Source of the DNA: a candidate division FCPU426 bacterium | GTDB taxonomy: Bacteria > Oederibacteriota > JAAXVQ01 > JAUVAV01 | Direction of reading: 5' to 3' | NCBI GenBank assembly: GCA_040756875.1 | Contig: JBFLYH010000002.1 | Span: forward strand, 981,246-1,045,245 | Length of the DNA: 64,000 nucleotides | Part shown: piece after piece, positions 57,101 to 59,364 of the stretch | Layout of the letters: each line of letters opens with the position of its first letter | Numbering within the stretch: the first letter of the stretch is position 1 | Program-made: the position numbers and the translations under genes | The notes under the pieces: model-generated | Told to the model about the DNA's origin: nothing | Databases searched by the model: none | The model's input: only the letters and a program-made list of their open reading frames with translations

Positions 57101-57936
57101 CTGCCGCACCCGATGGGGCTAAAAAGGTGTCGAAGAAAGCTAAAGAAGCTTTGAAAAAAGCAGCCGATAAAACAGCAACTATGGCTAAAAATGCCAAAGA
57201 TAATCTGGGTATGACGGTAGATGCTTTCAATAATACCAAGGGTTTGGATAAAAAAACCAGAATAGCTCAGGGTGTTGGGACAGGGGTGTTGTCAGGGGAT
57301 TTATTGGACAATCCCGACCCTGCTTCATCTGAATTCGATCCAGATGGCCCGGCTATTTTATATATCAATGGGATGAGAACGCCGAATGATAAAGCTGAAA
57401 AAGATCAAAAAGCTTTATTTGATAAATGTGGCTATAAAGTTGCGCGGGTTCAAAACAACTCAAGTTTGGAAGGCGCAGGCGACATTGCTCAAATAGCTGG
57501 TCAAGAACAGGGCAACATTGATATCACGGCAATTCGCACGGCAGCTATGATTCGGAAAGGGCTTGAAAACCGTGATGAAATTTATGTGGTTGCGCACAGT
57601 CAGGGTACCAAAACATTTGAACAGGCATTGGCGCTATTAACCCCCGAAGAACGTAAGAAAATCAAGTTTCAAGGGTTTGGGGGAGAGCAGTATATTGATA
57701 AAAATAAATATGGATTGGCAAGTGCCCGTAATGTGCGGCATGAAAAAGACCCTGTGCCAAAAGTCAATGACGCAAGGATAGGTAACAAAGATTGGGAAAC
57801 CCTCGGGCATCAACCTGAAGTGAAACCGGGGACAGAACCTGGGATTCTGGATTATCATGATTTTCGAAAGACTTATGTGGATAGCGTCGAATTGCCCGTT
57901 AATACGAACGCAACACGAAAGGAAGATGACCAATGA
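51157..57936 (+). CDS. giant secreted multidomain protein (2259 aa): signal peptide, degenerate lipase-like N-domain, ~1700-aa Ala/Gln/Leu-rich helical region, Pro-rich linker, C-terminal alpha/beta-hydrolase-like domain
   Basis: Single uninterrupted ORF; signal peptide MVLRKRQSSITLLLSLLLVIPPGTLQA; C-terminal nucleophile elbow VVAHSQGT with downstream DPVP and DYHD. Confidence 0.7.
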   Translation: MVLRKRQSSITLLLSLLLVIPPGTLQAKSQPEPTEPSTRPERLTPEIVVLVPDVLDSAKTLANARQRLIKRGLKSRDVVVTAEQPGFSRSGGLDQQARQLEKILIDLKIRQPSARLHVVGKGSGGLVVRQYLARQAGLGPQAVTVESAVGLGVPHHGRWWAGVASSLGAKSQALADLAPGSAFLNQLNQPIEARRAEVRRVQGVLASLRQPNLRAQVRGKLSAIESQQADIRESVERALHFPQRAALSPDDQKRRQEAERFKAKLNRLPAAEARHQAASLAAASQRQVLAAEKFAGQSLPWQAPARQSTRTAEEALVRAQQTLLEKLSQPQAKLPAGFQPPKTQAQPGQWLSVLQALEHSSQAAAEKAASQAGGLQKQFASLDFEGLEARLKNAGTEAAGRLPADLLQLKPQHMARDLERAARKYETAAALEAAWRQSQAGKEQWLDQVERLTQVAAKQQLARDLAAYAAKAGLAPARLRAGAAEAGDLPERAQAAYRAWRQKEAALDQAFAAAKEQGLETIVKPEFWKLRERTAQVAERTHQAIARDSLKAWEGLAALRLGPAAKEQAMFAQATEHRLNRELAAWKQELLKPDWEARFSQAASALNRSLPAAEQAGALKQALVQQAGALQSALAAVRSDLAARERQSAWERLAADSRQAAAQLLQQQADHGFVADALAAGNFLAAGRKQEQQRLLDLVRQNDPAASRQVAVLAQLALQRHGLQSRLLETGGLDAGPAPQLLERIAGQAKALGLKTALPPKAMEHLAQAQEERQNRWKQLNTSWKRQWSQAVQEDRERNQPAKAWSACQETVAVSRSLAVLEDCSAALSQMKSWRDMGTQASGQQGRCQVLEQQLSAWLQTSGLGSRIPAVQSAAAAAQEKFAPAAWQAILSQCGQKQEQASARLQNLRRELARQPEWILPQVAGVSEQLAQAAQDPSRIKGLLLEISGLREQTQKHLTQAREQTLEALWPGQGKGKASALGQELNQVLSSLQDYRQLSRMNAQADTLQDLLSAKALLWQQQNLQAQGLGAVKTLESLLAQTAGIPGKPSGQVFSQITATLSLMQKLTANQMQSAGLLPGLMDRECGMPAKAALQKEWRAWLDGQFSAQQGLDWAGGQLQLSTVLSNPGAGWRQQTNALATGMLENLVDQAAERQISLGLAEVQRLSNEARELLSAPVRQLRAELGQLGLLDPRQDQGPGLSIVSWAQHFVQQGVAQGVAQALASLERTQAQFSNRLERGLLELARAQATMAINALSGQYAGLAVEVKRLWEGVGPEAGEALNLQGLLNVAQDQEFLQTWQEDIFSKLVAENPLQADLGRLGQVASSLQALIDQPASQLGDWLVRSGVNLGVERLQSLQAEAQKLLHEAMTTGAVNELRTRLNAVLLKLDQEAGRLSRYLDQTLAKLPSGVVPAGLRDALRELRDLPGTLAAGIDGLMQDVESYLANQVLQSGFDRLNAMLNQYGGQASLWAVGARLQLSLTEISSLGQTAVAQLEVSLADLGTGNLTGLWENVAAGLSDFGGNLLNLLQDFVASASPVDLGGFLNITGLADSLWASAGEVLGQFTGLFELQVPMAGDWWQADELWQQLSGIFNAENWQLDFYQAADGFLRNISENLENLLNSGLAWVNDRWTEYMNQAREYWDILAGGPGRWWDELASGRWDQSLGNLMTQYLPPEYQPAVSALQQVRLAFNADFQLSAEWITNILDNLSAYLSEDARAVYQQVRELYDTGSEYYSAGSDILNAISSGDVTSVLTNISRLGRFHFNTGGQMYQWGKGRANKKGKYDGQALSAASEEEVLAAYVNALPASMREQALRMLENGTLPGSNPEREIDVADYDPDVDGQPAGPAAYEAAQEADASATLPDVAAASASDRHPGVPEAGVQEQTPPRRSPSLPKRGRGELDSGLGGNDSQGSTTDEGDASAAGTQPGGEGESGPPDLGPPRMSGVPTPPPVKQSLLDKMKNVYTNLNPVGLSKNAAQAAAPDGAKKVSKKAKEALKKAADKTATMAKNAKDNLGMTVDAFNNTKGLDKKTRIAQGVGTGVLSGDLLDNPDPASSEFDPDGPAILYINGMRTPNDKAEKDQKALFDKCGYKVARVQNNSSLEGAGDIAQIAGQEQGNIDITAIRTAAMIRKGLENRDEIYVVAHSQGTKTFEQALALLTPEERKKIKFQGFGGEQYIDKNKYGLASARNVRHEKDPVPKVNDARIGNKDWETLGHQPEVKPGTEPGILDYHDFRKTYVDSVELPVNTNATRKEDDQ
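56834..56856. repeat. CCCCCTCTTTG/CAAAGAGGGGG palindrome inside the giant gene, just upstream of the base-composition break
   Basis: Perfect 11-bp arms around a single central C; same CCCTC/GAGGG motif class as the elements at 34699 and 51020. Confidence 0.7.
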
Positions 57937-58433
57937 CCACCGAAAAAAAACTTGCTATAGTTGGGATAGTTGCCCTATGCGGGCTTATAGTATTTCAAAT
58001 ATGGTCACATGGCACAACCAAGACTATTAATGATGATCCAATATACGGGAAATTAGTTGGAAAAACATATGAAACAAGAACAGATTTGTATTTATCTCAA
58101 GATCGCCAGTCTGCCAATTATTCAATTAAAATTCCGGGAGTCTTATATCCTGAAATAAAAGAAATAAAAGAGTATCCGCATGGTACTGCGCACAATATTA
58201 TTCACAAATTAATTCCTTCTAAAACTAGAATTAAAATTAGCAATGTTGTTTTAACTAACGTGCCTTTCCGAGGGACAGACCTCTGGCTGAAAGCCAGATT
58301 TGAAGACTCAAGCATTTATGAAGGAGAAGTTGATGCTACATTTATCTCCGACTTTAGCAGCTATCACGAAAAAATGGATTCCAAATACGTCACCGAAATC
58401 ACGCCTGAGGGGGAACCGGTTAATGCCAAATAA
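57933..58433 (+). CDS. small membrane-anchored protein, low-GC; candidate immunity-type protein
   Basis: ATGA overlap with the giant gene stop; N-terminal TM helix; AT-rich codon usage. Confidence 0.5.
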   Translation: MTTEKKLAIVGIVALCGLIVFQIWSHGTTKTINDDPIYGKLVGKTYETRTDLYLSQDRQSANYSIKIPGVLYPEIKEIKEYPHGTAHNIIHKLIPSKTRIKISNVVLTNVPFRGTDLWLKARFEDSSIYEGEVDATFISDFSSYHEKMDSKYVTEITPEGEPVNAK

Positions 58434-59364
58434 AACCAAAATATTCTTTGCCAGTCTTTGCTGCCTTATTCCTTTAACTGCCTGCTTGCAACAGGATAAA
58501 ATAGTCAACAAGCTCGCTGGTATCTACGATGGCCTTAGTTACACTTCCCCTTATGGCTTCTTCTCCACGCACCTCAAGGATTGGGCAGATCTCAAAAGCG
58601 TAAAAGACGGCCAGGAAAACAACGGCGCCACAATGGTGCTGAACTTTCAGGATAAATCCATGAACGAATATCAAATCGCAGCTTCTTTGGCTAATCCGGA
58701 GCTCAATGCCCACGACTTGGTCACCCGCATGGTGGCCAAAGGACAGGCAGAAGGCAAGAACGTGGTGGCAGCCACCACGGCTGACGGCGAGGAATGCCTG
58801 ATGGCCCAATCCCTGCTGAAAGAAAAAGATTCAGACAAGGGCTATGCGCTGATGACGGTCATTTTTCTACGAAAAGGCACGATATTCGATTTAGGCATCA
58901 AAACCCACCCGGAAAAGGAACCGGAAAAAGCCGCGGAGTTGGCCAAACAGTGCTTCCGGGATCTATGGAACCGGTCGGCCTTGCGCGGGCAAGTGCAGGA
59001 TTTTGAAAAATATCCCGAAGATATTGATCCCCGCGTGCCGGTGGTTACCCTGGCAGCCGGCCGGGTGGCTGTGGAAATGGGACTGGAAGCAGTGATTGAA
59101 CGGGGCAAGAAGGCAATTGTCAGGATAATAGGCAAGGGCAGTGAAGGGCCGATGACCTTGAGCCTGGGCATTGCCGCCAAAGAGAACGAAATCATCACGA
59201 CTGAAGCAGTATCCAGCAAAGCCAATGACATGAAGACCGTAAGCCAGATGCAGAGCGAGTTCTATCGCAAATTCGGCGAAGCAGTTGCTGCCGAGCAACT
59301 CACTATAAACCGTTCCAATGCCTTTGACCCGGACCTTGCGCAATTGCCGGTAAAGGGGAAATAG
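58423..59364 (+). CDS. lipoprotein of unknown function
   Basis: Start at ATG 58423; signal peptide with lipobox LTAC; 313 aa. Confidence 0.55.
   Translation: MPNKTKIFFASLCCLIPLTACLQQDKIVNKLAGIYDGLSYTSPYGFFSTHLKDWADLKSVKDGQENNGATMVLNFQDKSMNEYQIAASLANPELNAHDLVTRMVAKGQAEGKNVVAATTADGEECLMAQSLLKEKDSDKGYALMTVIFLRKGTIFDLGIKTHPEKEPEKAAELAKQCFRDLWNRSALRGQVQDFEKYPEDIDPRVPVVTLAAGRVAVEMGLEAVIERGKKAIVRIIGKGSEGPMTLSLGIAAKENEIITTEAVSSKANDMKTVSQMQSEFYRKFGEAVAAEQLTINRSNAFDPDLAQLPVKGK

Follow-up and report, generated by a model that had tools for sequence, protein, structure and literature searches.

Two small genes for envelope proteins follow directly on the hydrolase-like tail of a giant gene in the genome of a candidate division FCPU426 bacterium. 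Do both of them encode immunity proteins against this tail? We approached the question within a stretch of 64,000 nucleotides (hereafter the window) and its relatives elsewhere. The initial annotation had described ORF1 as a membrane-anchored protein and ORF2 as a lipoprotein, and both descriptions, including product sizes, the overlap of ORF1 with the giant stop and the lipobox of ORF2, are confirmed (Table 1). It had further taken both genes for immunity candidates, and here the two have to be judged separately.

Table 1. Features of the locus; positions are those of the window.
Feature	Position	Strand	Remarks
Conserved trunk of the giant secreted protein	51157..57015	+	From ORF and translation; ends in the junction motif
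Junction / recombination handle	56974..57015	+	Encodes DLGPPRMSGVPTPP; sits at the GC drop
Swappable C-terminal region (putative toxin)	57016..57936	+	K/A-rich linker and Ser-Asp-His alpha/beta hydrolase
ORF1, 166-aa membrane-anchored periplasmic protein	57933..58433	+	ATGA overlap with the stop of the giant gene
ORF2, 313-aa lipoprotein	58423..59364	+	Lipobox LTAC; overlaps ORF1 by 11 nt

The gene upstream of ORF1 encodes, according to its open reading frame and translation, a protein of 2259 aa. Its trunk consists of a Sec signal peptide, a degenerate lipase-like head and a Q/A-rich region of ~1700 aa, which looks helical when the sequence is read by eye. Comparison of the trunk with Pfam returned zero families above threshold, and the Pfam scan of the giant protein found no RHS/YD repeats (RHS_repeat), filamentous-haemagglutinin repeats or other recognised delivery domain. 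The trunk does have relatives: it shares 31-32% identity with that of locus L001 over more than 800 aa, and its residues 1871-1953 are 74% identical to the trunk of L004, right up to the motif PPRMSGVPTPP. This junction is present in a single copy in the window. At the DNA level, it is 76.7% identical to the trunk end in L004 and 85.7% identical, over 42 nt, to the start of an orphan tail in the same locus.

Base composition breaks at the same place. GC of the trunk is 64.7% (GC3 76%); where the hydrolase tail begins, GC drops from 65% to 44%, and on a fine scale from 0.77 (56941-57000) through 0.50 (57001-57060) to 0.37 (from 57121). An assembly chimera at this point was considered and rejected, because the reading frame is unbroken and independent contigs (L004, L005 and L011) show a similar drop at the trunk-tail junction. 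Near the giant gene we recognised no secretion or delivery machinery, the neighbours being glycosylation genes including glycosyltransferases. A Shine-Dalgarno-like motif, AAGGAAG, lies upstream of ORF1, and a promoter and terminator scan yielded sites no commoner than in shuffled sequence.

The C-terminal end of the giant protein, at residues ~2020-2259, is a compact hydrolase domain of about 200-240 residues. Its catalytic serine (Ser2148 of the giant protein, codon 57598-57600) lies within AHSQG, the aspartate in KDPVP and the histidine in YHDF. All three residues (Ser127, Asp177 and His213 in tail numbering) are invariant in the tail family, and a structural model places them on canonical alpha/beta-hydrolase elements. 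In its GxSxG-type elbow AHSQG and its Ser-Asp-His triad, this predicted toxin resembles the T6SS lipase effectors Tle1-5, which are said to have been described together with their Tli immunity proteins by Russell et al. 2013. Nevertheless, the tail found nothing above threshold in Pfam and NCBIfam and showed no membership in the Tle families (Tle1 DUF2235, Tle2, Tle3, Tle4 and Tle5 PLD). The best of the Tle matches, to Tle3 (PF24322, E 8e-4), came from two of the ten tail members, the window protein not being one of them. Nor did we find the linkage to vgrG, hcp or PAAR that marks T6SS Tle effectors; glycosyltransferases adjoin the gene instead. Against PDB sequences, the single tail sequence gave zero matches and the tail profile matched solely the nucleophile elbow of Geobacillus lipases (E ~0.1). 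Going by the model, it is plausible that the tail is "lipase-type", with the fold of a generic minimal alpha/beta hydrolase outside the Tle families. It may be toxic, acting on a lipid or ester target in the periplasm.

Related loci reveal that this tail is exchangeable. L004 and L005 have the common trunk end up to PPRMSGVPTPP, followed by a tail unrelated to that of the window and by a gene for a 182-aa lipoprotein. Further downstream come a Y1 transposase, an orphan copy of the window's tail, which starts with MSGVPTPP (65% identity), and an ORF1 homologue (58%). The arrangement is identical in the JGI contig AxEY7RNq. Unrelated C-terminal domains on one trunk, attached from a fixed junction, are what is expected of polymorphic toxins, and so are orphan modules of tail and immunity gene that keep the junction sequence. 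The latter are found in L004-L008, AxEY7RNq and L020; the window itself holds no orphan cassettes and no extra copies of tail, ORF1, ORF2 or junction. In L011, L021, L027, L029, L032 and other loci, a tail of the window's type also stands behind the Rhs C-terminal motif, with an ORF1-like gene next in each; RHS/YD repeats and a PxxxxDPxGL-type core motif are present in the five named. Low GC3 is common to tail and ORF1 in hosts of differing GC: 39 and 32, respectively, in the window versus 76 in the trunk, and 20 and 21 in L011 versus 65 in the Rhs core.

The window locus is probably a polymorphic toxin-immunity cassette, and this kind is already known. Rhs/CdiA-type polymorphic toxins with orphan CT-immunity cassettes were reportedly described by Zhang et al. 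2012 in Biol Direct and by Poole et al. 2011. As in these systems, a conserved trunk is followed by variable C-terminal tails after a short conserved junction, with the putative immunity gene directly downstream; GC of the cassette is below that of the host, displaced orphan modules retain the junction, and the identical pairing of tail and putative immunity gene occurs on genuine Rhs proteins. Unlike in these systems, the window's trunk lacks RHS/YD or filamentous-haemagglutinin repeats, its junction PPRMSGVPTPP is new, and in the window's relatives a Y1 transposase gene lies between the expressed and the orphan cassettes.

Which of the two downstream genes belongs to the cassette? In the eight distinct loci found by protein searches, an ORF1-like gene lies directly 3´ of the tail without exception, and among 32 further metagenomic loci 29 have one there; of the remaining three, two stop at contig ends and one is a weak fragment. 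Wherever sequence suffices, genes of this family adjoin the tail on the window's trunk, on Rhs proteins and in orphan cassettes alike. ORF1 is in this respect a small downstream gene that tracks the toxin domain whatever the trunk, which ORF2 is not. In 1504 six-frame segments, the ORF1 profile gave 34 matches, every one on the same strand as the tail; a lipobox is present in at least 28. L019, L037 and L028 carry ORF1-like genes in tandem arrays. The profile was iterated on downstream ORFs, and its late E-values are possibly inflated; the original, un-iterated profile was already significant for 16 ORFs in 15 loci.

ORF1 is less conserved than the tail, identities of tail and ORF1 being 85/64, 68/59 and 51/29%. 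The divergence of the two is correlated with a Pearson r of 0.78 and a Spearman coefficient of 0.35 (p = 0.12), the latter indicating that the three closest pairs account for the correlation. The ORF1 homologue of L001 is 27% identical. Behind the tail relative P0021 lies a gene for 367 aa, not ~160 aa, which would count against strict pairing. ORF1 and 11 members of its family matched no family in Pfam or NCBIfam and no described Tli/Imm family. As in the Tle/Tli pairs, the putative immunity protein is sent to the periplasm with a lipid or membrane anchor, and its gene comes right after that of the hydrolase. According to PMC13133936, lipoprotein or Sec signals are the rule among Tli immunity proteins, and the export signals of the ORF1 family fit in with this. 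ORF1 itself has an N-terminal signal anchor; ORF2, with its lipobox, is an exported protein encoded beside the effector as well. Because an ORF1-like gene stands downstream in 8/8 and 29/32 tail loci, ORF1 is very probably, as judged from sequence, the periplasmic immunity protein cognate to this tail, and may bind it directly. For this gene, the proposed co-variation with the C-terminal domain in other genomes holds across different trunks.

We therefore suggest an explanation which, taken as a whole, we consider quite likely. The giant gene would encode a Sec-exported polymorphic toxin composed of the trunk, the junction PPRMSGVPTPP and a C-terminal cassette that can be exchanged horizontally and comprises a compact esterase/lipase-like Ser-Asp-His alpha/beta hydrolase and ORF1. 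ORF1 would be tethered to the membrane with a domain of ~135 aa in the periplasm, and would bind and neutralise hydrolase that comes from sibling cells or passes through the producer's own periplasm. ORF2 would stand outside the general toxin-immunity unit. As an envelope lipoprotein with the DcrB/PsbP fold, it would come from a small family normally found elsewhere; in the window's lineage it would have become translationally coupled to ORF1, without being a second protein that specifically binds the toxin.

The most serious competitor, which we nevertheless regard as rather unlikely, keeps both genes as immunity genes, ORF2 being a second, lineage-specific one that guards, for example, another leaflet of the membrane or another compartment against this hydrolase. 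ORF2 stands beside the cassette solely in the window's own clade, in four loci including one orphan cassette, and its start-stop overlap with ORF1 is kept in all four. In AxEY7RNq, it is retained after an orphan, 5´-truncated tail fragment behind a transposase, with no trunk attached. The conserved overlap together with this retention argues that ORF2 is more than a neutral neighbour. The wider distribution speaks against its being an immunity gene. ORF2 gave no match in the 32 other tail loci (past the ORF1-like gene, the sequence continues for 300 nt or more in 17 of them and for 900 nt or more in 8), and it is absent from L003, L009 and L011 in spite of their ORF1-like genes. A scan of JGI metagenome contigs for ORF2 gave zero confirmed loci. 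Of the more distant relatives, P0023, P0024 and P0025 are solitary, neither a hydrolase nor ORF1 being present within 8 kb of them, and the family has some 20 further representatives (P0026-P0046); as to neighbours common to the window and these ORF2-only loci, there were weak matches only (a PMT_2 protein and a fibre-like protein). GC3 of ORF2 is 60% versus 32-39% in the cassette, with a like trend in L001 and L002. Further, the two immunity genes of the Tle1 case are paralogues, whereas paralogy of ORF1 and ORF2 was rejected (hhalign probability 1%). The known immunity proteins Tsi3 and TplEi do appear among the fold matches of ORF2, but they are weaker than DcrB, Eag and PsbP.

Since the ORF2 family is rare and usually found without a toxin, ORF2 is probably not a dedicated immunity gene. 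The initial annotation had itself named occurrence without an adjacent hydrolase as evidence against immunity, and because the relatives of ORF2 occur in exactly this way, without hydrolase or ORF1, that half of its proposal is unsupported; co-variation of ORF2 with the C-terminal domain does not go beyond the four clade loci. We read ORF2 as an accessory or passenger envelope protein, which at most may give a lineage-specific boost to envelope protection. Its operon coupling to ORF1 in four related loci makes a lineage-specific accessory role possible.

The predicted structure of ORF2 raises further possibilities. ORF2 and its relatives P0023, P0024, P0041 and P0044 have no match in Pfam, the DcrB/DUF1795 profile included, and ORF2 is in no NCBIfam family. 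Its model, of moderate quality (pLDDT 67, Foldseek E ~1e-3), has a low-confidence linker of ~45 residues after the lipid anchor, a DcrB/PsbP/Eag-like N-domain in the form of a Mog1/PsbP-like alpha-beta-alpha sandwich, and a KA1-like C-domain. The predicted fold is like that of DcrB, DUF1795 (Eag chaperones) and PsbP-Mog1 proteins (PDB 6e8a, 1tu1, 6xrb, 6e5d), with no membership on the level of sequence; the KA1-like domain and the linker are extra to ORF2.

According to one unlikely reading, the giant protein is a new Sec-dependent polymorphic-toxin delivery trunk of FCPU426 and relatives with a three-part module of tail, ORF1 and ORF2, the last as co-immunity factor or toxin-handling chaperone. 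The trunk is free of Rhs, CdiA, T6SS and T7SS traits and has its own junction motif, and orphan cassettes are linked to Y1 transposase. ORF2 would here be a lipid-anchored DcrB/Eag-fold protein acting in the periplasm; to our knowledge, no toxin-immunity system described so far includes a co-immunity or chaperone component of this sort. Less probable still is that ORF2 acts purely as a periplasmic, lipid-anchored chaperone or adaptor (DcrB/DUF1795/Eag-like), which would hold a hydrophobic or unfolded segment of the giant toxin during export and not neutralise it. As an exported lipoprotein, ORF2 differs from the Eag chaperones, which work in the cytoplasm and serve T6SS effectors; the moderate model, the stand-alone relatives with no toxin nearby and the trunkless copy in AxEY7RNq also count against this role.

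Membrane-anchored Lif foldases, helical periplasmic proteins of ~340 aa, are encoded downstream of Pseudomonas lipases. The idea that no toxin-immunity is involved at all, the giant protein being attached to the surface as a nutritional esterase or an adhesin, with ORF1 as its Lif-like foldase or maturation factor, can point to the position and membrane anchor of ORF1, which recall lipA-lif operons, to the Sec signal peptide and to delivery machinery not being found nearby, but we give it hardly any credence: many Rhs proteins end in the same hydrolase, which in them comes after the canonical C-terminal motif, the swapped tails on one trunk, junction-bearing orphan cassettes and tandem ORF1-like arrays are hallmarks of polymorphic toxins and not of pairs of enzyme and foldase, and ORF1, with only 166 aa half the size of Lif, matches no Pfam family including lipase chaperones.

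If ORF1 alone is the cognate immunity protein, as we propose, then the minimal AHSQG alpha/beta hydrolase and the ~150-aa lipoprotein form a toxin-immunity pair outside Pfam and NCBIfam. Besides Rhs proteins, at least one giant trunk unrelated to them carries this pair, which is distributed over uncultured phyla (FCPU426, Elusimicrobia-like, Desulfobacteraceae). It would be a clean pair for structures of small lipoproteins inhibiting esterase/lipase toxins. The locus also illustrates how immunity genes are over-called from adjacency and envelope location alone: ORF2 fits both and fails in co-occurrence. For a candidate phylum without cultured members, the pair would present a testable case of interbacterial antagonism.

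The two genes behind the hydrolase-like tail of the giant gene, ORF1 and ORF2, were both proposed as immunity genes in the initial annotation. Their basic description is confirmed by the ORF coordinates (see the table): ORF1 starts in an ATGA overlap with the stop of the giant gene, with a Shine-Dalgarno-like AAGGAAG motif on its 5' side, and ORF2 is a lipoprotein whose lipobox cysteine and start are kept in all homologues, so that the ATG at 58423 is the preferred start and ORF1 and ORF2 overlap by 11 nt. Database entries list them as hypothetical proteins AB1439_10830 and AB1439_10835 (FCPU426 MAG, 1.13-Mb contig). 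GC content drops sharply at about 57000, within the giant gene. The assignment of both genes to the low-GC tract holds for ORF1; judged by its GC and GC3, ORF2 belongs there only loosely and is compositionally unlike the tail and ORF1. The same ordering of GC and GC3 was found in two homologous loci (L001, L002). The remainder of the window from 57016 to 64000 stays at 35-53% GC, versus 65% for the first 51 kb, and may represent a larger acquired island.

Features of the window and of related loci (window coordinates unless a contig is named)
Feature	Position	Strand	Length	GC (%)	GC3 (%)	Remarks
Glycosylation cluster	37938-50878					5' of giant gene
Giant ORF	51157..57936	+	2259 aa			terminal codons ...GAC CAA TGA
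Giant-protein head	51157-51700					after signal peptide
Trunk	51157..57015			64.7	76	
C-terminal tail	57016..57936			43.8	39	
ORF1	57933..58433	+	166 aa	36.9	32	ATG start at 57933; N-terminus MTTEKK, then 18-residue hydrophobic helix
ORF2	58423..59364	+	313 aa	51.1	60	from ATG at 58423; signal/lipobox MPNKTKIFFASLCCLIPLTAC, followed by LQQ
T9SS C-terminal-sorting-domain protein	59457..60050					downstream, low-GC DNA
Bdello_MAT_N-like fibre protein	60149..60982					downstream, low-GC DNA
Polytopic membrane protein	60992..62887		631 aa			downstream, low-GC DNA
Secreted protein and lipoprotein	L001:5308-7486		541 aa; 178 aa			3' of ORF2 homologue
Alternative tail	L004:281-1096		~270 aa			motifs TTWCNYAAR ... 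GHGHIAAITG
Lipoprotein after alternative tail	L004:1089-1637		182 aa			
Y1_Tnp gene	L004:1872-2870					
Y1_Tnp gene	L005:1645-2643					
Y1_Tnp gene	AxEY7RNq genes 1763-2734					
Distant tail relative P0021	-EAnELBb genes 130-867		245 aa			
Gene after P0021	-EAnELBb genes 922-2025		367 aa			

The last ~240 residues of the giant protein have no above-threshold match in Pfam, NCBIfam or PDB sequences. When aligned with nine relatives, the tail displays an invariant Ser (AHSQG), Asp (KDPVP) and His (YHDF), and these residues make it a minimal Ser-Asp-His alpha/beta hydrolase. Lipase-type activity, as in the initial annotation, is plausible rather than established.

Recognisable in the trunk are a signal peptide, a lipase-like head in degenerate form and an extended region rich in Q and A, but no delivery domain. 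Similarity of the head to secreted lipases is weak (PDB 5h6b, E 0.2; Palm_thioest, E 0.03). In place of the lipase nucleophile motif VGHSQGG it has VGKGSGG, and the oxyanion "HG" has given way to other residues; the head is probably a degenerate, non-catalytic domain of alpha/beta-hydrolase type.

Two contigs (L004, L005) contain the 3' end of a close trunk homologue, 74% identical to window residues 1871-1953, which diverges from the window exactly after DLGPPRMSGVPTPP. There the trunk continues into an unrelated tail, followed by a lipoprotein gene and a Y1 transposase gene. Beyond the transposase lies an orphan copy of the window tail (65% identity) with an ORF1 homologue (58%); the orphan product begins MSGVPTPP and retains ~40-70 nt of trunk-end homology. 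JGI metagenome contig AxEY7RNq has the same layout, its orphan tail being 5'-truncated (85% identity) and followed by ORF1 and ORF2 homologues. In RHS-repeat proteins of a Desulfobacteraceae MAG (L011), the same hydrolase domain forms the C-terminus directly after the canonical Rhs C-terminal motif, as it does in L021, L027, L029, L032 and several shorter contigs. GC3 in L011 is 20 for the tail, 21 for the ORF1-like gene and 65 for the Rhs core, and tail GC is low in every host examined. The swap, the orphan and Rhs-borne copies and the low GC across hosts rule out an assembly artefact at 57000 and mark a genuine cassette boundary. The tail would then be a polymorphic-toxin module.

The Y1_Tnp (IS200/RAYT-like) gene, 323-332 aa, separates the expressed pair from the orphan cassette in three relatives and may be involved in cassette turnover; one of the three copies additionally bears a DnaA_C-type HTH. 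The alternative tail of L004 has no Pfam match; its motifs suggest a Cys-His hydrolase, and the lipoprotein behind it is presumably its immunity protein.

ORF1 has no family assignment in Pfam or NCBIfam. An ORF1-like gene is next after the tail in the window, AxEY7RNq, L001, L002, L003, the L004-L008 group, L009/L010 and L011. Searching metagenomes with a profile of the tail yielded 32 further loci. In 15 of these the ORF behind the tail already matched the original ORF1 profile; after three rounds of iteration, an ORF1-like gene was found directly 3' of the tail in 29. Of the remaining three, two run off the contig and the third holds a weak fragment of the tail. Across 1504 six-frame segments the ORF1 profile has 34 matches, every one on the same strand as the tail, and the iterated profile has no other match in the window and none in ORF2-only loci. 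Co-variation with the hydrolase domain is borne out for ORF1, whose family accompanies the tail on trunk, Rhs and orphan copies alike. Tail and ORF1 identities in pairs are 85/64, 68/59 and 51/29%, ORF1 diverging faster but in step with the tail (Pearson r = 0.78; Spearman 0.35, p = 0.12; the pairs are phylogenetically non-independent and the correlation is carried by the closest ones). Most family members have a lipobox and a few, window ORF1 included, a signal anchor instead, which places the ORF1 domain outside the cytoplasm. In these features ORF1 matches what is established for immunity proteins against lipase effectors that act in the periplasm (PMC13133936). Synteny, divergence and export, taken with this match, argue that ORF1 is very probably the cognate immunity protein of the tail; it would act in the periplasm, by binding the tail directly.

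ORF1-like lipoprotein genes stand in tandem in L019 (up to four copies or fragments), L037 and L028, and in L020 a second hydrolase tail lies downstream of the first pair; such arrangements are typical of immunity-gene and orphan-toxin arrays. A possible exception to the pairing is JGI contig -EAnELBb, where the gene after P0021 encodes 367 aa and not ~160.

A specific immunity role for ORF2 is unlikely. It is unrelated to ORF1 and its family is rare, with seven close homologues among 5.8 billion proteins and, by exhaustive HMMER, 25 representatives (50% clustering, 1.84 billion proteins), nearly all ~300 aa. ORF2 follows ORF1 with overlapping stop and start in four loci only: the window, L001, L002 and AxEY7RNq. 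After the ORF1-like gene, L003 has a TPR protein and L009 a polytopic membrane protein in its place, and L011 has no ORF2; none of the 32 further tail loci matched it, with at least 300 nt available beyond the ORF1-like gene in 17 and at least 900 nt in eight. All three more distant relatives placeable in context stand alone (P0023 in L014, P0025 in L015 and P0024, directly after a PMT/PMT_2 glycosyltransferase, in L012 and L013); a six-frame search out to 8 kb shows neither a hydrolase tail nor an ORF1-like sequence near any of them. Wide occurrence without an adjacent hydrolase domain is what the initial annotation itself held to speak against immunity, and for ORF2 the absences and stand-alone relatives amount to that. 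Its conserved coupling to ORF1 in one lineage, orphan cassette included, leaves room for an accessory role.

The window's own glycosylation cluster recalls through its PMT_2 genes the setting of P0024. Two of its products, of 1199 and 913 aa, are very large membrane proteins that combine PMT_2 with PA14; it further encodes glycosyltransferases of types GT2 and GT1, methyltransferases and a flippase-like protein. In L001, the secreted protein (with a K/E-rich spacer) and the lipoprotein behind the ORF2 homologue have no Pfam match and may form another toxin-immunity-like pair.

Taken together, the locus has the architecture of a polymorphic toxin-immunity system. It resembles Rhs-CT/RhsI and Tle/Tli pairs in working principle, but its proteins fall outside the Rhs, Tle, Tli and DcrB sequence families. 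The principle is already known; what is new is that neither the hydrolase family nor the immunity family has been catalogued, and that the trunk is of an unusual kind.
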